A program made the translations under genes and the position numbers. A DNA stretch of 64,000 bases from a virus. Lineage: Duplodnaviria; Heunggongvirae; Uroviricota; Caudoviricetes. Below are positions 2,865 through 50,720 of this stretch, in pieces. How positions within the stretch are numbered: position 1 is the first letter of the stretch; every line of letters begins with the position of its first letter. The notes below the pieces were generated by a model. It saw only the letters and a list, made by a program, of their open reading frames with translations, was not told the origin of the DNA and did not search any database. The stretch lies in IMG/VR virus record IMGVR_UViG_2721755676_000001; one strand, given 5' to 3'.

Positions 2865-4898
2865 ATGACCCAAGTCGCGAAGAAAATTCTGGTGACGTGC
2901 GCGCTGCCGTACGCTAACGGCTCAATCCACCTCGGCCATATGCTGGAGCACATCCAGGCTGATGTCTGGGTTCGTTACCAGCGAATGCGCGGCCACGAGG
3001 TTAATTTCATCTGTGCCGACGATGCCCACGGTACGCCAATCATGCTGAAAGCACAGCAGCTTGGTATCACACCGGAACAGATGATTGGCGAAATGAGTCA
3101 GGAACATCAGACTGATTTCGCAGGCTTTAACATCAGCTATGACAACTATCACTCGACGCACAGCGAAGAGAACCGTCAGTTGTCCGAGCTTATCTATACT
3201 CGCCTGAAAGAGAACGGTTTTATTAAAAACCGCACCATCTCTCAGCTGTACGACCCGGAAAAAGGCATGTTCCTGCCGGACCGTTTTGTAAAAGGCACAT
3301 GCCCGAAATGTAAAGCGCCGGATCAATACGGCGATAACTGTGAAGTCTGCGGCGCGACATACAGCCCGACGGAACTGATCGAGCCGAAATCAGTGGTTTC
3401 TGGCGCTACACCGGTAATGCGTGATTCCGAACACTTCTTCTTTGATCTGCCTTCTTTCAGCGAAATGTTGCAGGCATGGACCCGCAGCGGTGCGTTGCAG
3501 GAGCAGGTGGCAAACAAAATGCAGGAGTGGTTTGAATCTGGCCTGCAACAGTGGGATATCTCCCGTGACGCACCTTACTTCGGTTTTGAAATTCCGAACG
3601 CACCGGGCAAATACTTCTACGTCTGGCTGGACGCGCCGATTGGCTACATGGGTTCCTTCAAGAATCTGTGCGACAAACGCGGCGACACTACCAGCTTCGA
3701 CGAATACTGGAAGAAAGACTCCACCGCCGAGCTGTACCACTTCATCGGCAAAGATATCGTTTACTTCCACAGCCTGTTCTGGCCTGCCATGCTGGAAGGC
3801 AGCAACTTCCGCAAGCCGACCAACCTGTTTGTTCACGGCTATGTGACGGTGAACGGCGCGAAGATGTCCAAGTCTCGCGGCACCTTTATTAAAGCCAGCA
3901 CCTGGCTGAATCATTTTGACGCCGACAGCCTGCGTTACTACTACACTGCGAAACTCTCTTCGCGCATTGATGATATCGATCTCAACCTGGAAGATTTCGT
4001 TCAGCGTGTGAATGCCGATATCGTTAACAAAGTGGTTAACCTGGCCTCCCGTAATGCAGGCTTTATCAACAAGCGTTTTGACGGCGTGCTGGCAAGCGAA
4101 CTGGCTGACCCGCAACTGTACAAAACCTTTACTGATGCCGCTGAAGTGATTGGCGAAGCATGGGAAAGCCGCGAATTTGGCAAAGCTATCCGTGAAATCA
4201 TGGCACTGGCTGACCTGGCTAACCGCTATGTTGATGAACAGGCTCCGTGGGTGGTGGCAAAGCAGGAAGGACGCGATGCCGATCTGCAGGCGATTTGCTC
4301 TATGGGCATTAACCTGTTCCGCGTGCTGATGACGTACCTGAAACCGGTACTGCCGAAACTGACTGAACGTGCAGAAGCATTCCTGAATACAGAACTGACC
4401 TGGGATGGTATCCAGCAACCGCTGCTGGGCCATAAAGTGAATCCGTTCAAGGCACTGTATAACCGCATCGATATGAAGCAGGTTGAAGCACTGGTGGAAG
4501 CATCCAAAGAAGAAGTGAAAGCCACAGCCGCACCGGTAACTGGCCCACTGGCTGACGACCCGATTCAGGAAACTATCACCTTTGACGACTTCGCCAAAGT
4601 TGACCTGCGCGTGGCGCTGATTGAAAACGCAGAGTTTGTAGAAGGTTCTGACAAACTGCTTCGCCTGACGCTGGATCTCGGTGGTGAAAAGCGTAATGTC
4701 TTCTCAGGCATCCGTTCCGCTTATCCAGATCCACAGGCACTGATTGGTCGTCACACCATTATGGTGGCTAACCTGGCACCACGTAAAATGCGCTTCGGTA
4801 TCTCTGAAGGCATGGTGATGGCTGCTGGCCCCGGCGGGAAAGATATCTTCCTGTTAAGCCCGGATGCTGGTGCTAAACCTGGCCACCAGGTTAAGTAA
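2865..4898 (+). CDS. metG: methionyl-tRNA synthetase
   Basis: 677 aa from the ATG at 2865 ([29 protein letters not shown] motif, KMSKS, zinc knuckle CPKC..C..C, C-terminal tRNA-binding domain); divergent from mrp as in E. coli-type chromosomes. Confidence 0.95.
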
Positions 4899-4920
4899 TT
4901 AAACAACCTCTCTTCGCAAT

Positions 4921-4946
4921 GCCCGGCAACACGCCGGGCATTTTCA
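4921..4946 (+). terminator. intrinsic terminator downstream of metG
   Basis: GCCCGGC aacac GCCGGGC followed by ATTTTCAT. Confidence 0.7.
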
Positions 4947-4981
4947 TATAGACACAACCCCTTCTGACTTTAACAAACTCT

Positions 4982-5046
4982 AAAACAATTTGTTTTCTAC
5001 CTTTTGTTGATTGAGATAATAAGTCATATAAGAAAACAAATTGTTT
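4982..5046 (+). promoter_or_regulatory. class I promoter/operator unit (two palindromes flanking an extended -10)
   Basis: AAAACAATTTGTTTT (4982-4996), tTGaGATAAT (5011-5020), AGAAAACAAATTGTTT (5031-5046) directly before SD AGGAG. Confidence 0.5.
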
Positions 5047-5051
5047 AGGAG

Positions 5052-5300
5052 ATGAAGATGTTTGGAACAGCAAAAGAAATCATCGAGAAACTGAAAAACT
5101 ATCCAGAAGACGAACCCTTACTCATGGTTATGTGGCACAAAGAAGATATTGCTGAAGTAAGGACAGATCTCACTGATGAACAATGCGTACAGGTGATGCA
5201 AAAAATCAGACAATGCCATAACGCTGATGTCGGCGTTAATTGGGAGGTTATATCAACTACGGCGAATGAGTTGTTTCCGAACGGGGTGGTAAAATGCTGA
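5052..5300 (+). CDS. hypothetical small protein (82 aa; start may be the ATG at 5058)
   Basis: ORF immediately downstream of a class I unit and SD. Confidence 0.5.
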   Translation: MKMFGTAKEIIEKLKNYPEDEPLLMVMWHKEDIAEVRTDLTDEQCVQVMQKIRQCHNADVGVNWEVISTTANELFPNGVVKC

Positions 5301-5594
5301 AACTCACCAAATTGTATAAGACGACAGTTAGTAGCCCTACCCTCGTTACACAGCATGACTCTGAGTGTCTACCAAATATCTGTTTCGAGCACCATACAAT
5401 CTCGGACTCAATTGGGTACAGAAACGGAGTATGGGGGAGTCAGGGGAGGGAAGAAAAGCTGCGTGATTACGGTGTCACATAGCAAACCATCAAGAACATT
5501 CGAAAGGTGCTCGATGTAGGATTTGATGCGGTACAATTCCACCCTGACGCTGAAATAGACGATGGTCTGGAAAATTGGAAATTGTGAGGGATAA

Positions 5595-6122: not shown

Positions 6123-6150
6123 AGTTGTTTATACAATCAAGAAAACAACT
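6123..6150 (+). promoter_or_regulatory. class I-type unit with split palindrome around a TACAAT -10-like hexamer
   Basis: AGTTGTTT-aTACAAT-ca-AGAAAACAACT. Confidence 0.35.
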
Positions 6151-6860
6151 GAATAACAGATCAACGAAACATCAACGCTTTCACCCGATTTGGTCTAAAA
6201 AATTGACGTTTTCACACATCACTGCTTATACCCGTAACTCTACGCAGCAGACAGCGCCACAGCGTCCAATTTTCACCACAGACGACCCAACACACTACCA
6301 ACAAAAACACACGCTCAAAATCGCTCCCGTTGCGTTACACAACCATATAAACAACTTATTTTCAGGCATAACAAAACAACTAAATAACACAAATGCCATT
6401 TCCAAAAACAACCAACCTCTTTATGGCAGGCTACCGAAAAGACCCACCTCTTCTCCCCAGGCTACCGGACAACCAACCTAACTTTCACAGGCAATCCGAA
6501 AACATTCATACGCGCGATACCCACGACACGCCATTCCCCAAACAGCGAAGAACACCAGAATCACTGAAACCCCAACGAAGCCTGTAACCGCAAGGTTTCT
6601 CTCAATCCCAAAAGACACGAAACACAACAATCACGGGAAATGCCATTACCCAATACACGAATAACTACAAAAGCCCTTCACGCACTCCAGACAAACAACT
6701 CAAACACAATAACGAAAGGAATCGCCCACCTGCCATTACTCCATACACGGAGAAGAACAATCACCAAAACGACGAGAACACCCCATAGAAGAACCACCGC
6801 AAAACGAACGAAACCACATACACCGACAGAGAGAACAACACACCCAATTCACCAACAGAA
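6150..6860. other. A+C-rich (G/T-depleted) non-coding tract with degenerate internal repeats
   Basis: A+C about 75% on the plus strand (45% A, 32% C in 6601-6660); repeated TGCCATTnCnCnATACACG (6642, 6731); ORFs here are low-complexity artefacts. Confidence 0.6.
6416..6510. repeat. three tandem ~31-bp repeats with core CAGGCTACCG
   Basis: Cores at about 6427, 6458, 6488; homologous array at 9549-9650. Confidence 0.6.
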
Positions 6861-6976
6861 ATAGTTGCCGTATAGAACATTCTGGAAGGAGTGAGCATTA
6901 ACGCCTATAGAGAGGTTGAGACAGATAAAACACAACATGTATAGCGAAGAAGCCAGGTATGTATAAGTGGGGAGGG

Positions 6977-7000
6977 AAGGAGGGGTGTCGCCTCCTTTTT
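6977..7000 (+). terminator. possible intrinsic terminator (AAGGAGG..CCTCCTT + TTT)
   Basis: 7-bp stem with 7-nt loop and short T-run; would end a transcript from the 6130 promoter. Confidence 0.35.
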
Positions 7001-7063
7001 CGTATTTATTCAACTCCTGATTTTATCCCCCGTAACACCCCTACGGTCAGCCTTCGGTCCATA

Positions 7064-7198
7064 CAGGGAAAAGGTTGCATCCCGCTACAGAAACGGCTGG
7101 GTTGCCTTCGGGGAACGGCTGGAGGTTTTCAGGGAAACGGTCGAGTTGCCTGTGTGGATTTCGGGAAAAGGCTCGATGCCGGTTCAGGAACGGCGGCG
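7064..7198. repeat. six direct repeats of GGGAAACGGCT-like core, 21-32 bp period (iteron-like)
   Basis: Copies at 7064, 7088, 7109, 7130, 7162, 7185; related array at 10247-10326. Confidence 0.65.
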
Positions 7199-42343: not shown

Positions 42344-45300
42344 ATGTGGTACAGGGAAGGTACTATCACATTTACACAGGGCAGCAATACTCTGGTTGGG
42401 GCAGGGACAGCCTGGAACGTAACAGCTAATGGTGTGTTGCCGGGGATGATCGTCATTGGCCCCGACAATAAGCTGTATGAGATCAAGCGCGTAACCAGTG
42501 ATACGAACATTGTTCTCTCAGAACCTTATACCGGCGAAACTCAGTCTGAAGTTCCGTGCCGAATCATTACGACCTATGAAGGCGACTTAACACAGTTTAG
42601 CGCGCGCTTTACTGCGCTAATGTCGCGTATGTCGGCTGATTCCAAGTCCATACGCAGTTGGTTGACTGCGCTGGATGAGGTGACAATCGAGCGTGAAGAC
42701 GGTACAGAAGTGACCGTTAAGCCGCTAATGCAGATCGCCAACGAGCACAACGAAAACGTTGAGTGGTATAAAAATAACACTGACGCGATTGATGCTGCTG
42801 GCGACAAAGCTCGTGAGGCGGCGGCCAGTGCTGCCGCAGCAGCAAAAAGCGCCAATGCCGCTGGAGAAAAAGCCTCTCAAGCGTCTCAAAGTGCATCCGC
42901 TGCGGCATCCTCACAAAGTGCCGCAAGTGCGAGTGCAACTGCTGCGAAAAAATCTGAAACGAATGCTGCAGCGTCACAAAAATCTGCAGCCACTTCTGCA
43001 TCCACCGCGACCACGAAGGCGTCAGAAGCTGCCACCTCAGCCCGGGATGCGGCGGCCTCAAAAGAGGCAGCGAAATCATCAGAAACGAACGCATCCTCAA
43101 GCGCCAGTAGTGCCGCTTCCTCGGCAACGGCGGCAGGAAATTCCGCGAAGGCGGCAAAAACGTCCGAGACGAACGCCAGGTCTTCTGAAACGGCAGCGGG
43201 ACAGAGCGCCTCAGCTGCGGCAGGCTCAAAAACAGCGGCTGCGTCGTCTGCCAGTGCCGCGTCAACAAGTGCCGGGCAGGCCTCAGCCAGTGCCACCGCC
43301 GCCGGAAAATCGGCAGAAAGTGCCGCATCGTCTGCTTCAACAGCCACAACGAAGGCTGGCGAAGCCACTGAACAGGCCAGCGCAGCAGCGAGGTCTGCTT
43401 CCGCAGCGAAGACATCCGAAACGAACGCGAAAGCGTCGGAAACCAGCGCAGAATCCTCAAAAACGGCTGCCGCATCGTCCGCCAGTTCGGCGGCGTCATC
43501 GGCATCATCGGCGTCTGCTTCAAAAGATGAGGCGACCAGACAGGCGTCAGCAGCGAAGGGCAGCGCCACGACGGCATCCACGAAAGCAACAGAGGCGGCA
43601 GGCAGTGCGACGGCAGCATCTCAGAGCAAAACTGCTGCTGAATCCGCTGCGACTCGTGCGGAAGCTGCTGCTGATCGTGCTGAAGAGATTGCCGGTGCAG
43701 TTGCGATGGAAGACGCAAGCCTTACAACTAAAGGTGTTGTGAAACTTAGCAGTGCTGTCGACAGCACCAGTGAATCGCTGGCCGCAACGCCAAAAGCAGT
43801 TAAAGCAGCCAATGACAATGCGAATAGCAGGGTGCCATCTAACCGAAAAGTTAACGGTAAAGCACTGACTGCGGATATCAAATTAACGCCGAAAGATATT
43901 GGTACTTTAAATTCAGTAACGATGTCTTTCTCTGGCGGGGCAGGGTGGTTCAAACTGGCTACGGTTACCATGCCACAAGCGAGTTCCATCGTTTACATCG
44001 CATTGATTGGTGGCGCTGGTTACAACGTCGGCTCCCCACATCAGGCAGGCATTTCAGAACTGGTTCTACGAGCAGGCAATGGAAACCCCAAAGGGATTAC
44101 AGGTGCTTTGTGGAAGCGTACAGCTGTCGGATTAACGAATTTCGCCTGGATCAACACATCCGGCGATACATATGATATTTACGTTGAGATTGGCAATTAT
44201 GCGACTCGTGTAAATATCCATTGGGATTGTACTGCAAATGCGACAGTTTCTATTTATACCTCGCCAACATATTCAGCGAGTAAGCCTTCCAGCGTTACCG
44301 ATGGTGTTGTTTATACGATGTATAGCACACATCAGAAACCGACGCCGTTAGATATTGGAGCACTGCCAACAACCGGAGGAACAGTTTCAGGTCCGTTGTC
44401 TGTTACAGGTGGATTAACTGGTTCATTGAATGGTAATGCAAGTACAGCCACGAAATTGCAGACGGCAAGATCTATCGGTGGAGTTGTTTTCGACGGTTCT
44501 GCAAATATTAACCTTCCAGGTGTAAACACTACGGGTAATCAGAACACCACTGGTAATGCTGCAACTGCTACAAAACTTCAGACTGCAAGAAAAATATCCG
44601 GTGTTCCATTTGATGGTTCTACTGATATCACTTTAACCGCTGCGCATGTTGCCGCTTTCGCAAGAAGGGCAACAGGGTCATATGCGGATGCTGATGGTGG
44701 CGTGCCGTGGAATGCTGAATCTGGTGCTTACAATGTAACTAGAACAGGCGACAGTTATATTCTTGCCAACTTTTATACCGGTGTAGGTAGTTGCCGGACC
44801 CTGCAGATGAAGGCGCATTACAGAAATGGAGGTCTGTTCTACCGTTCCTCAAGAGATGGCTATGGTTTTGAAAGTGGTTGGGAGCAGGTTTACACGACTG
44901 GATTTATGCCTCAGCCGGCTGATATAAACGCGCCAACCGCTGCCGCTGGATGGTTAAATAGTGGTAACGGAACGGCATTTACGACTGCTCAATTTATAAC
45001 TTGGCTAAATAATCAGGGGGCATTTACAAACAAACATTGGATCGCACGGTGCTCATGGGCTTACGCCAACAATAATTATATAGACGACACTGGTTGCGGT
45101 AGGATCGATCTATCTGGTTCCGTGATTGAGGTGTTTAGTAATAAGGCAACAAGCCACTACACTATTCGTGTTACAACGACAACAACATCGGGTCATGGTG
45201 GTGTTAACAATGCGGAATTTATTTATGTGTACAATGGAAGTGATTATGCACCAGGCTGGCGTCGTTCTTATAACACTAGAAACAAACCAACAGCTTCTGA

Positions 45301-46642
45301 TGTAGGAGCATTATCGCTTTCTGGAGGAGCGTTAACTGGCGGATTAACTGCTGCTGGCGAGATTATTTCAAAATCGGCGAATGGTCTGCGCATTGCCTAC
45401 GGAAACTACGGATTCTTTATCCGAAACGATGGTTCAAGCACATACTTCATGTTGACCGATTCGGGTAACAGCCTGGGAACCTATAATAGTTTAAGGCCGC
45501 TTATCATTAACAATGCCAATGGTGCTGTTAGGATCGGTAATGGACTCAATGTTACTGGCGGCATCAATGGTAGTTTGAACGGTAATGCTTCAACAGCTAC
45601 GAAGTTGCAAACAGCGAGAAACATCAATGGTGTTAAGTTTGATGGTTCAGGCGATATCAACATTAATACATTGGTATCTCGTGGCCGAGTTACGGCGTTA
45701 AGCGGCTCTACTCAAGGCACTGCTGGCATTCAAATGTATGAGGCGTACAACAATAGCTACCCGACCACGTATGGCAACGTATTGCACATGAAAGGTGCGA
45801 GTGCTGCTGGTGAGGGCGAGTTGCTTATTGGCTGGAGTGGTACGAGCGGTGCACATGCGCCAGTTTTCATTCGCTCACGAAGAGATAACACAGGTGCAGC
45901 ATGGTCAGCGTGGGCGCAGGTATATACCGCTAAGGATTCAATCCCTGGTGTGAATACAACTGGTAATCAGAACACTACTGGTAATGCCGCAACCGCCACA
46001 AAATTGCAGACAGCAAGGAAAATTGCTGGTGTGGCGTTTGATGGCTCTGCCGATATAACTTTGACTGCGGCTAACCTTAATGCTTACACGAAAACAGAGG
46101 TAGCAAACCTTCTAAGCTCCTATGCAAGCAGATCATCACTGACAGGCTATAGTGGCAACCTGGATATTGTTGCTGAAACACTGGTTGTCAAATCAGGCGG
46201 TAGTGGAGGGTTTGCTATATGGGATATTGGCACAACTACTAGCGGTGCCAATATGTACATTGATCCAAACCCAGGTATCAATACAGTTTGGCGTTCAACG
46301 TCTTCAAGGCGCTATAAAAAGGATATTGAAACATTACAAGATCGATATGCTGATGAACTTTTGTCATTAAGACCTGTTTGGTATCGTTCAATTTGTCGAG
46401 GTGACCGAAAGGATTGGGGGTATTACGGCCTTATTGCTGAAGAGGTTGGTGAGATTGCCCCGCAATATGTCCATTGGCGTGAACCAACAAATAATGATTC
46501 TCCAGAAGATATTTCCTCAAATGGTATGGTCGCTGAAGGAGTGATGTATGAGCGTTTGGTTGTACCACTCATTCATCATATTCAGCAATTGACCAAAAGG
46601 GTTGAGGAGCTTGAAACGAAGTTAAATTCACCTAAAGAATAA
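42344..46642 (+). CDS. side tail fibre protein with C-terminal intramolecular-chaperone (peptidase S74-like) domain
   Basis: Ala/Ser-rich low-complexity region, three GNASTATKLQTAR..GV.FDGS fibre repeats, C-terminal DIVAE...RRYKKDIE...GLIAEEV segment. Confidence 0.8.
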   Translation: MWYREGTITFTQGSNTLVGAGTAWNVTANGVLPGMIVIGPDNKLYEIKRVTSDTNIVLSEPYTGETQSEVPCRIITTYEGDLTQFSARFTALMSRMSADSKSIRSWLTALDEVTIEREDGTEVTVKPLMQIANEHNENVEWYKNNTDAIDAAGDKAREAAASAAAAAKSANAAGEKASQASQSASAAASSQSAASASATAAKKSETNAAASQKSAATSASTATTKASEAATSARDAAASKEAAKSSETNASSSASSAASSATAAGNSAKAAKTSETNARSSETAAGQSASAAAGSKTAAASSASAASTSAGQASASATAAGKSAESAASSASTATTKAGEATEQASAAARSASAAKTSETNAKASETSAESSKTAAASSASSAASSASSASASKDEATRQASAAKGSATTASTKATEAAGSATAASQSKTAAESAATRAEAAADRAEEIAGAVAMEDASLTTKGVVKLSSAVDSTSESLAATPKAVKAANDNANSRVPSNRKVNGKALTADIKLTPKDIGTLNSVTMSFSGGAGWFKLATVTMPQASSIVYIALIGGAGYNVGSPHQAGISELVLRAGNGNPKGITGALWKRTAVGLTNFAWINTSGDTYDIYVEIGNYATRVNIHWDCTANATVSIYTSPTYSASKPSSVTDGVVYTMYSTHQKPTPLDIGALPTTGGTVSGPLSVTGGLTGSLNGNASTATKLQTARSIGGVVFDGSANINLPGVNTTGNQNTTGNAATATKLQTARKISGVPFDGSTDITLTAAHVAAFARRATGSYADADGGVPWNAESGAYNVTRTGDSYILANFYTGVGSCRTLQMKAHYRNGGLFYRSSRDGYGFESGWEQVYTTGFMPQPADINAPTAAAGWLNSGNGTAFTTAQFITWLNNQGAFTNKHWIARCSWAYANNNYIDDTGCGRIDLSGSVIEVFSNKATSHYTIRVTTTTTSGHGGVNNAEFIYVYNGSDYAPGWRRSYNTRNKPTASDVGALSLSGGALTGGLTAAGEIISKSANGLRIAYGNYGFFIRNDGSSTYFMLTDSGNSLGTYNSLRPLIINNANGAVRIGNGLNVTGGINGSLNGNASTATKLQTARNINGVKFDGSGDININTLVSRGRVTALSGSTQGTAGIQMYEAYNNSYPTTYGNVLHMKGASAAGEGELLIGWSGTSGAHAPVFIRSRRDNTGAAWSAWAQVYTAKDSIPGVNTTGNQNTTGNAATATKLQTARKIAGVAFDGSADITLTAANLNAYTKTEVANLLSSYASRSSLTGYSGNLDIVAETLVVKSGGSGGFAIWDIGTTTSGANMYIDPNPGINTVWRSTSSRRYKKDIETLQDRYADELLSLRPVWYRSICRGDRKDWGYYGLIAEEVGEIAPQYVHWREPTNNDSPEDISSNGMVAEGVMYERLVVPLIHHIQQLTKRVEELETKLNSPKE

Positions 46643-46702
46643 ACAACTTCAATCGGGGCTGGAGCTAAACCAGCCCCTGCTTAAAAGTATAAGGATATAT
46701 TT

Positions 46703-46957
46703 ATGAGCTATGGTGCACAGGTTTGGTCGCCATCAAGACAGGAGATGGTCAATGCGTTGGCCCCTGTTTATTACCTCGATTATTTTACTCCCTCTGGTTC
46801 AGGAAGTAGAACATATGAGGTTGAGGCGGGATTGGGAATCGACTATTACATAATGGACGTAACCAATGGAAAGTACACAAGTCTTACGGTTTCTGGAAAT
46901 ACCATTTCGTGGTCTGGAGCTAGTGGTAATTTAAACATATTGGTTTTTCAAAAATAA
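46703..46957 (+). CDS. hypothetical protein (84 aa)
   Basis: Terminator hairpin GGGGCTGG..CCAGCCCC and SD upstream. Confidence 0.4.
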   Translation: MSYGAQVWSPSRQEMVNALAPVYYLDYFTPSGSGSRTYEVEAGLGIDYYIMDVTNGKYTSLTVSGNTISWSGASGNLNILVFQK

Positions 46958-47565
46958 TGTACGGAAGCAAGATATATCGATCTGACGGGAAGGTCTGGAT
47001 GTCTCCTTCTTTGTCTCCTATCGTTTTTCAGAGAAAGCAGGTTGTTTCTTTGTCCGGCGGGACAGAGTTTAACACCAAAATATCTCCAGATCGTTCACCG
47101 ATTATTTTTGTTGCCTATTCGAAAGCTGTTTCATTAATAGCCAACAGAATAGTGCGTAACAACCAGGTGATTTACAGTTTCGGAGGTCGGGGTAGCGACT
47201 CTAGTGCCACGATATACGTATTTTCGAAAGGTATAGCCAAAAAAGAAACTTGGGGCATGAGTTTTTTCAATGCACAAGGGGGGGAAATCTATAATACGGC
47301 AAATATCCCACTTTCATTTACCTTTCTTAATAATACGGAGTGGAACAGCTCTGGAGGGCATGTTTTTGATTACCCTCCAGCGATAATCCCAACATATGCG
47401 AATGTGTTCGCTGTTCCAGTACCGGGCGGAGCCATGACAATGGTTTATGGATATGCGGCGTATGGAAATACTGTTAGCTCGATATTCGTAAACCAACTTA
47501 ATGGCGGCCATAGTTTTAGCGTAAATGGCAGAGTACCGGTAATAAATAGAAATCTGTATAACTGA
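46957..47565 (+). CDS. hypothetical Gly/Ser-rich protein (202 aa)
   Basis: TAATG overlap with the preceding gene. Confidence 0.4.
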   Translation: MYGSKIYRSDGKVWMSPSLSPIVFQRKQVVSLSGGTEFNTKISPDRSPIIFVAYSKAVSLIANRIVRNNQVIYSFGGRGSDSSATIYVFSKGIAKKETWGMSFFNAQGGEIYNTANIPLSFTFLNNTEWNSSGGHVFDYPPAIIPTYANVFAVPVPGGAMTMVYGYAAYGNTVSSIFVNQLNGGHSFSVNGRVPVINRNLYN

Positions 47566-47572
47566 TGAGTAA

Positions 47573-47806
47573 ATGATGAAAAGATTATTTCTAACAATAG
47601 CTGTTGTTCTCTCTCTTACTGGCTGCCAGAAATTGCCGACACCTATATGTTATGGTGAAGCTATCATTGGTGGACAGGAGACAGTCATACCCATATATGC
47701 TGTTAAAAAAGTGAACGACTATACCTTATACAAAGCGGGTAGCATCTATAACTGGCGATGGGTTGGAGTAGGTGCTTTCTCATCAATCGGTTGCAATGCT
47801 GAATGA
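47573..47806 (+). CDS. small lipoprotein (77 aa), candidate superinfection-exclusion factor
   Basis: Signal peptide with lipobox LTGC, directly downstream of the fibre genes. Confidence 0.6.
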   Translation: MMKRLFLTIAVVLSLTGCQKLPTPICYGEAIIGGQETVIPIYAVKKVNDYTLYKAGSIYNWRWVGVGAFSSIGCNAE

Positions 47807-47875
47807 TAGGTAAGTACACACCTACAACAAAAGGGTGAAATGTGATATAAATCCGCCATCCCGATTTGACTTTTC

Positions 47876-48211
47876 ATGGAGGAAAACATGTCGAACGAGA
47901 TGGCGGGCGTTACAACAGAGCAAGTTGAGCGTATTGCCGCGATCGTTGCTCGGGAGGTTGTTGGCAAATTAGGTAAAGAGCTACGTGAAGAAATTGGCCA
48001 GGAGGTCAATGATCAGCTGAAAACCTACTTTGGTGATATGACCCCGGCGCAACATAGTATTCAACACTCCAATCTGGACAAACTCCTTAACCGGTTAGAT
48101 TCCATCTCAAGTGGGTTCTTTGGCGGCATTGTTTCTAAAATAACGTCGTTCATTATTACCGCACTGCTTTTGGGGTTAGCCGCGTATGGCGTAAAAAGTG
48201 GACTGCAATAA
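47876..48211 (+). CDS. membrane protein with C-terminal TM segment (possible holin)
   Basis: One hydrophobic helix (ITSFIITALLLGLAAYGV) at the C-terminus; immediately precedes the lysin gene. Confidence 0.4.
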   Translation: MEENMSNEMAGVTTEQVERIAAIVAREVVGKLGKELREEIGQEVNDQLKTYFGDMTPAQHSIQHSNLDKLLNRLDSISSGFFGGIVSKITSFIITALLLGLAAYGVKSGLQ

Positions 48212-48224
48212 CAGGAGATCAAGG

Positions 48225-48917
48225 ATGAAGACTCCGAGAGGCATTCGTAATAATAACCCCGGTAATCTTGATAAAGGATCACCGTGGCAAGGTCTGGTTG
48301 CGAATCCAGACGAACCGCGCTTTTGCACGTTTAAAGACCCTGTTTGGGGGATTCGTGCGCTGGCGGTGACTCTAATTACCTACCACGATAAACGTCGCGC
48401 AAAAGACGGCTCAAGTATCGATACCATTCGTGAAGTTATTGAACGCTGGGCACCGCCGAATGAAAACAATACTGACGCCTACATTAATGAGGTGTCTAAA
48501 GCCGTTGGTGTAACCGCAGACATGATCATCGATCTGCATGATTACGACATCCTTCGACCTTTGGTTGAGGCAATCATTCGCCACGAGAATGGCCGAGGCC
48601 CGCTAAAAACGCTGAACACCTGGTATGCGGCAGAAGTTATTGAGGAAGGTCTGCGTCGAGCTGGCGTTGTTAAGCCGGTGAAAACCGTGAAGGCTGTTCC
48701 TGTAACTAAAGAAACCGCAGGCGCAACTGTTACAGCAGGTATTGGTCTGGCGCAGCTGGCCGATGTTATGCCGCAGGTTTCCGCTGCTATGGATAAAGCA
48801 CAAGGTCATATCTCTAGCGGGGATACAGTACGCATCATCTTCGGTATTGCCACTATTGTTGTGGCAGGATTCATTGCCTGGTCGCAGGTAAGAAAACACC
48901 AGAAAGGGATGGTCTAA
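48225..48917 (+). CDS. putative endolysin with C-terminal membrane anchor
   Basis: ATG at 48225 with SD CAGGAG; position in lysis cassette; N-terminal GIRNNNPGNL-containing domain, C-terminal TM (IIFGIATIVVAGFIAW). Enzymatic class not determined. Confidence 0.45.
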   Translation: MKTPRGIRNNNPGNLDKGSPWQGLVANPDEPRFCTFKDPVWGIRALAVTLITYHDKRRAKDGSSIDTIREVIERWAPPNENNTDAYINEVSKAVGVTADMIIDLHDYDILRPLVEAIIRHENGRGPLKTLNTWYAAEVIEEGLRRAGVVKPVKTVKAVPVTKETAGATVTAGIGLAQLADVMPQVSAAMDKAQGHISSGDTVRIIFGIATIVVAGFIAWSQVRKHQKGMV

Positions 48918-48918
48918 T

Positions 48919-49170
48919 ATGCTAGGCAGCCTGATGACAAAGCTAAAAGTTGCTTTGATTACGCTGGCTGCCGTTCTTTTCGTTCTGGTCGGCGCTTACA
49001 CGATGGGCGGAAATGCGGCGCGACGAGCAATGGAAGAGAAGGCAAAACAGGAAGACAGGAAACGACTTCAAAGCACAGTGGATGTCAAAAATGAAACGGT
49101 TAATGAAGTGCGGCAAAAAGATGCCTCTGGTGTTCATCGCGAGCTGTTTGATAAATGGGTGCGTGATTAA
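48919..49170 (+). CDS. i-spanin (Rz-like)
   Basis: N-terminal TM helix then charged coiled-coil periplasmic region; follows the lysin. Confidence 0.55.
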   Translation: MLGSLMTKLKVALITLAAVLFVLVGAYTMGGNAARRAMEEKAKQEDRKRLQSTVDVKNETVNEVRQKDASGVHRELFDKWVRD

Positions 49171-49318
49171 GACGCAGGCTCCAGGCGTGCTATTCTGCGA
49201 TGCTGCAAATCCTATCTATGTGAGTAGAGAGGATTTTATGACTGAGGAAACGGAGCGACAGTTGCTTATCCACAATACGATAGGTGAAAGGCTGTGTGAG
49301 TGGGGGCACCTGAACTGA
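49091..49318 (+). CDS. o-spanin (Rz1-like lipoprotein), overlapping +1 frame
   Basis: Start inside the i-spanin gene; signal peptide with lipobox FIASC. Confidence 0.5.
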   Translation: MKRLMKCGKKMPLVFIASCLINGCVIKTQAPGVLFCDAANPIYVSREDFMTEETERQLLIHNTIGERLCEWGHLN

Positions 49319-49542
49319 GTCGATGATTGATGAGTGGTCTCAGTTTACCTTTTATCCTAAAGATGGCATCTTCACTCATATACACGCCTGTTCACTCAAG
49401 CTCATGTTGAATCATTTAGTAATTTGATGTAGATTTATTAGGCATCCACGTAAGTGGGCACATACAGGCTACGCATCCTCGTAGCCTTCAACCCCGAGAG
49501 GGGTGCCGCAATGACACTTGTGTTAACGGCTAAGGTGGATAT

Positions 49543-49962
49543 ATGCTAAATTATCATGACAATACGCGTTCTATGCAGACGATCCGCACCAATACTGCGG
49601 TCATCGACAGCTTTCCTATGCGTATTCACAACAGTGAAGACGCAGTAGAAGTGCGACGTATGTTGTGCCGTGAATCAGCTAACCGCCAGCACTTCATCGT
49701 CACTTTTAAGAGCGATGTGGCGCGTGCCGAAAAGATCTCTAATTCTACGTCACTGGTTAAACCGTTGGCCGAGGTTGTCGCTAACGGTAAACGAACCTCT
49801 TTTGTTTTAGATGTTGCTGAACAATATCCTGACTTGAAGTGTTTAGATCGTGATATTTCTTCACGAATCAAACAAGTTGTAGAGTCTTTTATGAAGAAAT
49901 TCTGTAAAATCGATGATATGGAACCATCAACGGCACAGAATACTTCATGGCACCATCTCTAA
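49543..49962 (+). CDS. hypothetical protein (139 aa)
   Basis: ORF after a 220-bp hairpin-rich intergenic region. Confidence 0.45.
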   Translation: MLNYHDNTRSMQTIRTNTAVIDSFPMRIHNSEDAVEVRRMLCRESANRQHFIVTFKSDVARAEKISNSTSLVKPLAEVVANGKRTSFVLDVAEQYPDLKCLDRDISSRIKQVVESFMKKFCKIDDMEPSTAQNTSWHHL

Positions 49963-50720
49963 TTGGTCAGGCGAACAGATTAATCCCTGAAATAGAAGAC
50001 TACAGCAAGGTCTTGTCTGAAATGCCGAGAGCGACGAGAATTATCGCTCTCGGTGAGTTCTATTTTATCTCCCGAGGTTTCGATCTAATTCGATTTACCG
50101 AATACGAGCTTGTTGATTCGGCCTATGAACGCTGTATTGTTGGCGAGTGTCTTGAGTCATGTGATCCTGATTACCAAGAGCAGGAAGTTAAGCGACTCAA
50201 ACGTGCTGGTTACACACCTCTTGAGATAGGAGCAGAAATTGAATCCTACAAGTTGCATGTGGGGCAGCCAGTCCAAACAGTCTTCCGCGTGGCCTACTGC
50301 GAGTTTCCAATCAAGGATAAATCTGGAGTAAAAGTCAGCGCCAAGCAGATTAGAGGGGTTTTTACTCATGCTGATTATATGGGATTAGGCATCGCAAGTT
50401 TTGCTTACCTTTATCTCGTAGATAAGTATCAGTACTTGGTTTGCGATACGTTACAGACGGTAAAAGGCGCAACTCTTTGGGCTGTGAGTATGCGCAAACA
50501 TGGACTGGTCGAAATTTACGATACGAAGAACGAAAATTTTATAGAGGAATTGGGTGAGGATGCCTGTGGCGTAAGTGGTTTTATTCCGTGGGATATCGGT
50601 AAGTCTGACGGAGGCCAGATGCGAAGACGTGAAGAGTGGGGGACTAATAAAATCAATCTCACCCCAGGTGCTTGTACTCATATAGTGAACATTCTGACTA
50701 AACGATCTATGAATCAATAA
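49947..50720 (+). CDS. hypothetical protein (257 aa)
   Basis: Overlaps the preceding gene end; followed by a strong terminator. Confidence 0.45.
   Translation: MAPSLIGQANRLIPEIEDYSKVLSEMPRATRIIALGEFYFISRGFDLIRFTEYELVDSAYERCIVGECLESCDPDYQEQEVKRLKRAGYTPLEIGAEIESYKLHVGQPVQTVFRVAYCEFPIKDKSGVKVSAKQIRGVFTHADYMGLGIASFAYLYLVDKYQYLVCDTLQTVKGATLWAVSMRKHGLVEIYDTKNENFIEELGEDACGVSGFIPWDIGKSDGGQMRRREEWGTNKINLTPGACTHIVNILTKRSMNQ

Follow-up and report, generated by a model that had tools for sequence, protein, structure and literature searches.

How does a phage lysin whose only strongly hydrophobic segment lies at its C-terminus reach the cell wall, and what is contributed by the small membrane protein encoded just ahead of it? 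The question is raised by a four-gene cassette in IMG/VR record IMGVR_UViG_2721755676_000001, from which we analysed a stretch of 64,000 nucleotides (hereafter the window). The window is part of an SSU5-like phage-plasmid of E. coli, and at 47888-49318 it carries four co-oriented genes on the + strand: a first gene of the family phrog_5093, a lysin, and an inner-membrane and an outer-membrane spanin (i-spanin and o-spanin). A first-pass annotation of this DNA had proposed a lysis cassette in which the lysin is anchored by its C-terminus and the two spanin genes overlap, and our analysis supports that proposal. On balance we favour the view that this is an SSU5-type late lysis module in which the phrog_5093 protein acts as the trigger or timer of a tethered lysin. 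By sequence the module is related to the cassette of Chi-like phages, with a different first gene.

Megablast of positions 46600-49600 matched Escherichia phages Cyrano (95%), PhiR41_1 and CMS-2020a and Salmonella phage SSU5 (83%), with identities of 83-95% across the four. Synteny with SSU5 spans the whole window, running from ~84 kb of SSU5, via its origin, to ~43 kb. In all four phages GenBank labels the genes holin, endolysin, Rz and Rz1. The cassette is also carried by 395 PLSDB plasmids of ~110 kb, mostly non-mobilizable and mostly from E. coli, and the plasmid records shown label its genes 'hypothetical protein'. It is common to find SSU5-like phage-plasmids in E. coli, Salmonella, Klebsiella and Enterobacter, sometimes with resistance genes. 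Of 80 related IMG/VR loci, all have the holin candidate, 79 have the lysin, 77 the i-spanin and 78 the o-spanin; the single locus lacking the lysin is cut by the contig end. In 79 of these 80 SSU5-like loci the first gene is separated from the lysin by 15-18 nt. The four features are real genes, not chance open reading frames, and each of their products has a PHROG match (E = 1e-25 to 1e-88). A promoter and terminator scan of 46500-50000 returned fewer matches than shuffled sequence, and so gives no evidence for a separate transcription unit. Our literature search found no functional work on the SSU5 lysis genes.

The lysin and its C-terminal membrane region

The lysin is of the type described for Hafnia phage Enc34 and for M4Lys. 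In a phmmer search it matched PDB entry 7Q47, the Enc34 endolysin's catalytic domain, at E = 2.6e-54. For modelling and conservation we aligned 36 full-length homologues, 56-90% identical overall. The resulting AlphaFold2 model has a confidence score (pLDDT) above 85 over residues 30-150, and its top Foldseek match is again 7Q47, with a target-normalised TM-score of 0.82 and 59% identity. The lysin residues E121, W75 and Y86 align with Enc34 E131, W79 and Y95 at constant offset and are invariant among the 36 homologues; the Enc34 authors had singled out Glu131, Trp79 and Tyr95 (PMC8943055). Against PHROGs the lysin matched phrog_873 'endolysin' (E = 3e-88) and, more weakly, tail-injection transglycosylase and tape-measure families, and tblastn found the catalytic domain by itself in many other phages, in virion-associated proteins. 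For the four cassette proteins, Pfam and NCBIfam scans gave sub-threshold noise only, and the PHA02564 domain is covered by no Pfam model. In tblastn the full lysin shares 55% identity, across 99% of its length, with Chi gp38 and with the endolysins of iEPS5, SPN19 and other Chi-like phages, and the identity with Chi gp38 includes the membrane region, up to the C-terminus. A large protein database holds 1611 homologues at E <= 1e-20, from sources that include Cronobacter, Klebsiella, Xenorhabdus, Photorhabdus, Pasteurella and Alcaligenaceae; the best 120 are mostly 226-245 aa with 98-100% query coverage, the rest being fragments or over-long calls.

Close homology supports a muralytic activity for the lysin. 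Peptidoglycan degradation has been demonstrated for Enc34 and M4Lys (PMC8943055, PMC7143992), and with respect to enzyme applications a close relative of the catalytic domain is already shown to be active on the peptidoglycan of several Gram-negatives. The first-pass annotation had named two findings that would undo the cassette: a non-muralytic catalytic domain, or a true holin or endolysin located elsewhere. The catalytic-family search it called for yielded the Enc34 match described above. No further holin or endolysin is annotated in the syntenic SSU5, and a hydropathy screen found no other small membrane-protein open reading frame within ~10 kb. With a catalytic domain homologous to muralytic Enc34 and M4Lys and no rival holin or endolysin, the cassette reading stands.

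The hydrophobic helix of the lysin had been placed at the C-terminus rather than the N-terminus, correctly so: the sole strong peak is at residues 202-221 (Kyte-Doolittle 19-residue mean 2.07). The same analysis found no hydrophobic segment in the N-terminus, and with it no N-terminal signal-arrest-release (SAR) or Sec signal anchor. We distinguish a proximal helix, H1, and a distal, strongly hydrophobic transmembrane (TM) helix, H2, with the basic tail VRKHQKGMV directly after H2. H1 is weakly hydrophobic, as in M4Lys, for which a single program called this helix. In the family H1 has a mean Kyte-Doolittle value of 0.80, consists of 55% Gly/Ala/Ser/Thr and keeps one conserved acidic residue, a composition that resembles that of a SAR domain and is the sole SAR-like feature of the lysin; the mean for H2 is 1.77. 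AlphaFold2 places helices in the C-terminal region at 162-170, 176-194 and 199-226.

Averaged over the family, the linker that leads into H1 carries a net charge of +2.0, the H1-H2 loop one of -1.5 and the tail one of +2.2. By the positive-inside rule, these basic outer flanks favour a hairpin with both ends in the cytoplasm (N-in/C-in). TMHMM gave the same N-in/C-in topology for the lysin of phage Siskin (PMC6498227), whereas the authors of the M4Lys study predicted a single helix with the catalytic domain outside (PMC7143992). Invariant residues of the linker and membrane region among the 36 homologues are P159 and T161 (in VPVTKET), A167, G174, Q177, A188, S198 and Q221, and because these are kept across proteins of such divergence, sequence conservation indicates that the region is not a generic anchor.

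The first-pass annotation called the lysin topology atypical. It is unusual but not new, and belongs to a class published between 2019 and 2022 with Siskin, M4Lys, Enc34 and AP1 LysAP. A putative endolysin with two C-terminal TM helices was first noted in Siskin in 2019, when a new class was proposed (PMC6498227). M4Lys of phage BSPM4 (2020) degrades peptidoglycan to glucosaminidase-type products; at full length it lyses E. coli alone, without the neighbouring gene and with azide present. Truncation of its C-terminus abolishes lysis, the membrane region alone is bacteriostatic, co-expression with the upstream gene makes lysis slightly slower, and the catalytic domain without the membrane region gave no lysis together with the neighbouring gene (PMC7143992). 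For Enc34 ORF39 (2022) a crystal structure was reported, the full-length protein being toxic and the C-terminally truncated form non-toxic. The authors noted that no mechanism is known by which a C-terminal signal could direct export, that this architecture 'appears to be limited' to Chivirus and its relatives, and that lysis by an overexpressed lysin may be a strong-promoter artefact (PMC8943055). AP1 LysAP (2022) is an independent GH24 case, modelled as a 'C-terminal SAR endolysin' freed by a pinholin with Sec involved; the single-helix HolAP binds the C-terminally anchored lysin and speeds up lysis (PMC8879335). The M4Lys and AP1 papers disagree on Sec involvement (PMC7143992, PMC8879335), and our literature search found no later paper resolving the export mechanism of these lysins.

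The first gene and its relatives

The first gene is annotated 'putative holin' in SSU5 and Cyrano. Its ATG at 47888 is preceded by the Shine-Dalgarno sequence GGAGGA and agrees with the annotated SSU5 and Cyrano starts and with the full phrog_5093 profile, so that the start at 47876 given by the first-pass annotation needs correction. Translation from that in-frame ATG, 12 nt upstream, would yield MEENM... (47876-47890), which resembles a holin dual-start motif; its conservation may come largely from the GGAGGA read as Glu codons. We rejected a dual-start (holin/antiholin) reading: the upstream ATG has no ribosome-binding site, is ACG in three related loci and is not universal.

The same annotation had described a holin candidate with a single C-terminal TM helix. 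This description holds, the protein having one hydrophobic peak (mean 2.02) followed by a five-residue tail, KSGLQ. Within the cassette it is a small (107 aa) one-TM protein encoded 13 nt upstream of the lysin. The family core has the motif YFGDMTPxQHxIQHxRLDKLLxxLD, in which G49, H56 and H60 are invariant and D71 nearly so (48 sequences). All 48 members have the C-terminal TM helix (mean Kyte-Doolittle 2.0), with a mean tail of 10 residues and net charge +1. The AlphaFold2 model (pLDDT 91) consists of a pair of long helices (residues 10-48 and 53-103) that meet at G49, and the second continues straight into the membrane segment. Foldseek of this model against the PDB gave no match below E = 6, a plain pair of long helices being uninformative. 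With the TM helix at the extreme C-terminus co-translational targeting is impossible, and we infer that the protein is tail-anchored, N-in/C-out; the charge counts are ambiguous for topology (N-terminal flank +0.35, tail +1.0).

The stretches leading into and forming the TM helices of the phrog_5093 protein and of the lysin (48100-48193 and 48795-48890) look alike, each with D..ISSG, a Gly/Ala-rich helix and an aromatic and Lys/Arg end. Homology between them was rejected, with an hhalign probability of 11.6% and E = 0.0026 over 30 membrane-helix columns, and we treat the likeness as one of composition; it could instead reflect helix-helix pairing.

Among cultured phages, tblastn found the first gene only in 12 SSU5-like records. 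An HMMER search of 1.84 billion representative proteins returned 57 phrog_5093 relatives at E <= 1e-3, which are 94-150 aa long and share the layout, except for ~10 shorter entries that cover part of the query; the 48 relatives that we aligned all match the phrog_5093 profile. Contexts of the distant relatives were taken from exact-protein look-ups; scans of metagenome and viral collections gave 1-3 loci. In SSU5-like elements of Photorhabdus, Xenorhabdus, Morganella, Kluyvera, Buttiauxella and others, a phrog_5093 member precedes an Enc34-type lysin with the same C-terminal region, and in some of these elements unrelated genes are inserted between cassette members.

On unrelated contigs a phrog_5093 member lies directly upstream of a Peptidase_M15_4 endolysin (locus L108), of Peptidase_M15_3 endolysins (L109, L110, L117), of M15-like endolysins (L088, L107, L113), of a GH108 + PG_binding_3 endolysin (L112) and of an Amidase_2 endolysin (L118). 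In L086 the member is followed by a three-helix protein (phrog_8226 'holin', E = 5e-7), an SLT-like endolysin (phrog_669) and spanins of the embedded type; a three-helix protein similar to that of L086 is also encoded in L089 and L090, the L090 copy without a PHROG match. Altogether, phrog_5093 members adjoin endolysins of at least six catalytic families in unrelated phages. In L111, a short contig, there is no same-strand endolysin within the remaining 390 nt. These contexts make a strong case, by guilt-by-association, that phrog_5093 is a protein of lysis cassettes and occupies the position that is canonical for a holin.

Four of the distant loci share a two-helix family of 72-91 aa encoded after the endolysin (L088:4285-4503, L107:4260-4493, L109:4791-5066, L118:3800-4057), with the motif ARPY[LV]T..FN..C.W...IGP.NA.IIGFWFGER and a weak phrog_6637 match; it has no counterpart in the window and is probably a class II holin or a pinholin. 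The idea that the C-terminal hairpin of the lysin is a fused copy of this free-standing protein was discarded (hhalign probability 0.1%). Inserts of unrelated genes in ~1-kb blocks split the lysis cassette in L098 (Photorhabdus; 4327-5448 and 6137-7190) and in L092 (4519-5835), a low-GC SSU5-like viral contig, one inserted gene encoding a lipoprotein. They are not the cor-region genes of the window, to which tblastn found no similarity.

The lysin, too, is found in other company. In L116 (2645-4110) a Chi gp37-like protein is encoded upstream of an Enc34-type lysin, and in L115 (2705-3717), an Alcaligenaceae prophage, the upstream gene encodes a 99-aa tail-anchored protein with His-x3-His. We rejected the latter as a remote phrog_5093 member, the His-x3-His aligning in register with a score of just 5 bits. 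The Enc34-type lysin looks like a portable module that combines with different partners, which fits the reported self-sufficiency of M4Lys. Chi gp37 itself (L003:2150-2488) is a putative 'class IV' holin (N-out, C-in) in the literature and an 'Rz-like spanin' in RefSeq and PHROGs (phrog_7686), so that by annotation Chi seems to have three spanin genes and no holin. Homology between phrog_5093 and this Chi-like 'holin' was considered and rejected; the two are at most analogous.

Routes to lysis

In the reading that we favour, the lysin would accumulate tethered to the inner membrane by H1 and H2, and the phrog_5093 protein would accumulate as a tail-anchored inner-membrane protein with a cytoplasmic two-helix region, serving as a holin-equivalent trigger or timer. 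Permeabilisation or depolarisation of the membrane by the phrog_5093 protein would then activate the tethered lysin or release it onto the murein, where, as a lysozyme-like glycosidase, it would cleave the glycan strands via Glu121; the short overlapped i-spanin and o-spanin would then fuse the inner membrane with the outer one. Judging from its homologues M4Lys and Enc34 ORF39, the membrane region of the lysin would be needed in cis for lysis and would make the enzyme toxic alone. For both membrane proteins the topology is our inference, as is the role of phrog_5093 as trigger. That phrog_5093 is a lysis protein is suggested by its constant place as head gene of the cassette and by the lack of any other candidate holin in the window or in SSU5; we also count the acceleration of lysis by HolAP in AP1, an analogous but non-homologous system. 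The label 'holin' applied by the first-pass annotation comes from position and topology, no homology to known holins being found.

Several observations weigh against a triggering role. Pfam, NCBIfam and PHROG scans found no homology of the phrog_5093 protein to characterised holins, BLAST found no similarity to Chi gp37, and the charged C-terminal tail typical of holins is absent. In most cassettes of distant relatives there is a further small protein, with one to three hydrophobic segments, and one of these proteins has a PHROG holin match, so the phrog_5093 family may be a second holin, an antiholin or a regulator. On the side of the lysin, the membrane region was modelled at low confidence (pLDDT 43-74), the topologies of both membrane proteins were derived from hydropathy and charge counts alone, and homologous lysins, when overexpressed, lyse cells without a partner. 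In the Pasteurella element L114 (2731-3932) no membrane-protein gene lies immediately upstream of the Enc34-type lysin. Export of an N-terminal domain by means of a C-terminal anchor is unexplained, as noted in PMC8943055.

The main rival is a self-sufficient lysin whose own C-terminal helices would handle the membrane step, uniting holin and endolysin functions in one polypeptide, with phrog_5093 as an antiholin or brake that would bind its membrane region and hold lysis back until virions are numerous enough; we regard this as unlikely, though deserving of real weight. M4Lys provides the precedent, lysing E. coli alone, with a bacteriostatic membrane region and an upstream gene that slightly slows lysis (PMC7143992), but its partner is not homologous to phrog_5093, and lysis upon overexpression may be a strong-promoter artefact (PMC8943055). 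Enc34-type lysins have varied upstream partners, or none bearing a TM helix, and phrog_5093 relatives co-occur with other holin-like proteins. The conserved 80-residue soluble region of phrog_5093, with its His-x3-His, also looks more regulatory than pore-forming. Nevertheless, the partner in AP1 speeds rather than delays lysis (PMC8879335), and phrog_5093 also precedes soluble endolysins, which offer no membrane region to bind. We consider it distinctly improbable that the cassette is instead a canonical holin-endolysin system, in which phrog_5093 would make large non-specific holes and the anchor would merely concentrate lysin on the cytoplasmic face near them. Known large-hole holins have a charged C-terminal tail and, T4-type aside, at least two TM helices; phrog_5093 has neither the tail nor two helices. 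The gene order of holin, endolysin and spanins is that of a canonical system, the charge pattern favours an N-in catalytic domain, and the soluble M15, GH108 and Amidase_2 endolysins that phrog_5093 precedes elsewhere would need a large-hole holin unless another gene supplies it. A tethered enzyme, on the other hand, would be unable to diffuse through a hole, the invariant linker and membrane residues argue for a role beyond anchoring, and the failure of the M4Lys catalytic domain to lyse cells with its neighbouring, non-homologous gene once the membrane region is removed points the same way (PMC7143992).

The first gene might also stand outside lysis altogether, as a moron or membrane accessory gene, for example for superinfection exclusion like the adjacent cor gene; this we think very improbable. 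It does follow genes for a PHROG outer-membrane protein (category 'other'), a membrane-associated protein and Cor (both moron category), its family has no assigned function, and the relative on the short contig L111 has no same-strand endolysin after it. Yet phrog_5093 adjoins, on the upstream side, endolysins of at least six unrelated catalytic families in unrelated phages. Its coupling to the lysin is tight, with the 15-18 nt gap kept in 79 of 80 loci, and across the 80 loci its conservation equals that of the lysin and exceeds that of the spanins.

Returning to phrog_5093 as a trigger or timer of a tethered lysin, the lysin class itself is already known, and GenBank already lists the SSU5 genes as lysis genes. 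What is new is that a very common group of enterobacterial phage-plasmids has this published class as its standard lysin, and that the partner there comes from an unstudied family whose members stand first in many kinds of lysis cassette. More tentatively, and with somewhat more doubt than confidence, we suggest that phrog_5093 is an unrecognised, widespread class of lysis protein (holin or timer), with a layout the reverse of known holins, portable across at least six endolysin families and the sole partner of the tethered Enc34-type lysin in SSU5-type phage-plasmids. If this is true, abundant E. coli plasmids would offer a tractable system for how C-terminally anchored lysins reach the cell wall. 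As the SSU5 lysin has a different partner from that of the other system, a comparison could separate the lysin's own role from its partner's. A role for phrog_5093 would also improve phage annotation and extend the holin/antiholin repertoire.

Spanins, neighbouring genes and related lysis systems

The i-spanin has an N-terminal TM helix at about residues 9-29 (Kyte-Doolittle 2.38 at residues 11-29), followed by a short charged periplasmic domain, and is weakly homologous to Chi gp39 (E = 1e-4). Between the o-spanin and Chi gp40 identity reaches 47% (E = 1e-17); in a published classification the SSU5 o-spanin is filed in the Chi family and the SSU5 i-spanin is a singleton (Kongari et al. 2018, PMC6139136). 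As the first-pass annotation stated, the o-spanin starts inside the i-spanin gene in the +1 frame (48919 mod 3 = 1, 49091 mod 3 = 2), at ATG 49091 or, as annotated in SSU5, at 49103. It overlaps the i-spanin by 80 nt (49091-49170) and ends at 49318, beyond the i-spanin stop at 49170, making the pair 'overlapped' and not 'embedded'.

The o-spanin signal has a basic n-region, MKRLMKCGKK, a hydrophobic stretch and LING|C, and is thus that of a lipoprotein. Two lipobox-like motifs, FIAS|C and LING|C, lie five residues apart (49145-49162). The first of these had been named as the lipobox; the sequence is present, but the functional cysteine is most likely that of LING|C, with the mature o-spanin starting at Cys24. 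The Cys of FIAS|C (49145-49147) is Phe in ~11 SSU5-like loci and has no counterpart in Photorhabdus, Xenorhabdus, Morganella or Chi, whereas the second Cys (in ISGC, VSGC, TNGC or LINGC) is invariant in all of the 80 loci in which the gene was found and also in Photorhabdus, Xenorhabdus, Morganella and Chi. The Asn at position -2 of LING|C is unusual.

Table 1 Features of the lysis cassette in the window, with the evidence for each
Feature	Coordinates	Strand	Basis
Putative holin/lysis-timing protein, 107 aa, phrog_5093	47888..48211	+	phrog_5093 E = 2e-68, full length
phrog_5093 core motif, residues F48-D71, YFGDMTPAQHSIQHSNLDKLLNRLD	48029..48100	+	48-sequence alignment
Single C-terminal TM helix of phrog_5093 protein, I85-V102 (predicted)	48140..48193	+	Kyte-Doolittle 19-residue mean 2.02
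Enc34/M4Lys-type endolysin, 230 aa	48225..48917	+	PDB 7Q47, Chi gp38 homology, phrog_873
Catalytic domain of lysin, PHA02564-type, lysozyme-like alpha-lobe fold, residues 1 to ~150	48225..48674	+	AlphaFold2, Foldseek
Codon of lysin catalytic Glu121 (predicted)	48585-48587	+	Alignment to Enc34 Glu131
Lysin helix H1, proximal, weakly hydrophobic, residues 166-184, GATVTAGIGLAQLADVMPQ	48720..48776	+	Hydropathy/composition
Lysin helix H2, distal, strongly hydrophobic TM, residues 202-221	48828..48887	+	Kyte-Doolittle; predicted helix 199-226
i-spanin (Rz-like), 83 aa	48919..49170	+	phrog_1026 'Rz-like spanin' E = 6e-25
o-spanin (Rz1-like) lipoprotein	49091..49318	+, +1 frame vs i-spanin	phrog_1275 E = 1e-25
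Likely lipobox L-I-N-G-C of o-spanin; lipidated Cys24 codon 49160-49162	49148..49162	+	Cys invariant in homologues

Between the tail fibre and the cassette (46703-47806) lie three genes, which encode a phrog_557 'outer membrane protein', a phrog_425 'membrane associated protein' and a Cor-like lipoprotein for superinfection exclusion (signal LSLTG|C, phrog_1119); Cyrano is without this trio at the corresponding position. The region 3' of the spanins (49319-50720) is variable. Two genes of unknown function (phrog_2594 and phrog_3307) occupy it in the window and likewise in SSU5, and Cyrano instead has a KacT-type toxin-antitoxin pair. The tail fibre itself (42344-46642, 1432 aa) contains a long Ala/Ser/Thr-rich low-complexity stretch and several repeats of GNASTATKLQTAR-type motifs, and at its C-terminal end it is similar to the self-cleaving chaperone domains that other fibres carry.

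Set against known systems, the phrog_5093 protein resembles the class III holin T of phage T4 in having a single TM helix and a large soluble domain that could accept regulatory input. T, however, has a short cytoplasmic N-terminus and a large periplasmic C-terminal domain, an arrangement that is reversed in the window protein, and there is no homology between the two. The spanins follow the overlapped pattern of P2 LysB/LysC and of the Chi family (PMC6139136), with an N-terminal-TM i-spanin and a +1-frame o-spanin lipoprotein running past the i-spanin stop. They differ in being very short (83 aa and ~52 aa mature), in the Asn at -2 of the lipobox and in the second lipobox-like Cys five residues upstream.

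With N-terminal SAR endolysins (P1 Lyz, R21/S21) the system would share a lysin tethered before lysis, a Gly/Ala/Ser/Thr-rich helix (H1) and a small membrane protein as the presumed trigger. The hydrophobic region of the window lysin is, in contrast, C-terminal, so that Sec-dependent co-translational export via a signal anchor cannot apply to it, and the partner has one helix as opposed to two in the pinholin S21. HolAP/LysAP of AP1 are closer in plan: LysAP has an N-terminal catalytic domain and a single C-terminal membrane segment required for lysis, an upstream gene encodes a single-helix membrane protein of ~110 aa, and the model is one of a tethered lysin freed after depolarisation. The LysAP domain is nonetheless GH24 and not PHA02564, neither HolAP nor LysAP has any sequence relation to the window proteins, and the HolAP helix lies near the N-terminus (residues 32-54) of a protein of the holin 2_3 superfamily.

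The nearest likeness is to Enc34 ORF39, M4Lys, Chi gp38 and Siskin. All have the all-helical PHA02564-type catalytic domain, at 59% identity to 7Q47 and 55% over full length to Chi gp38, with the catalytic Glu, Trp and Tyr, the linker and the C-terminal two-helix region with its basic tail, and the lysin gene lies between a small membrane-protein gene and overlapped spanins with a common o-spanin family. The SSU5-type lysin is known from sequence, and its cassette departs from the Chi-like ones in an i-spanin of weak similarity, in an unrelated partner, phrog_5093, with a C-terminal TM helix as against the N-terminal one of Chi gp37, and in its carrier, a ~110-kb phage-plasmid of the SSU5 group rather than a 60-kb virulent siphovirus.

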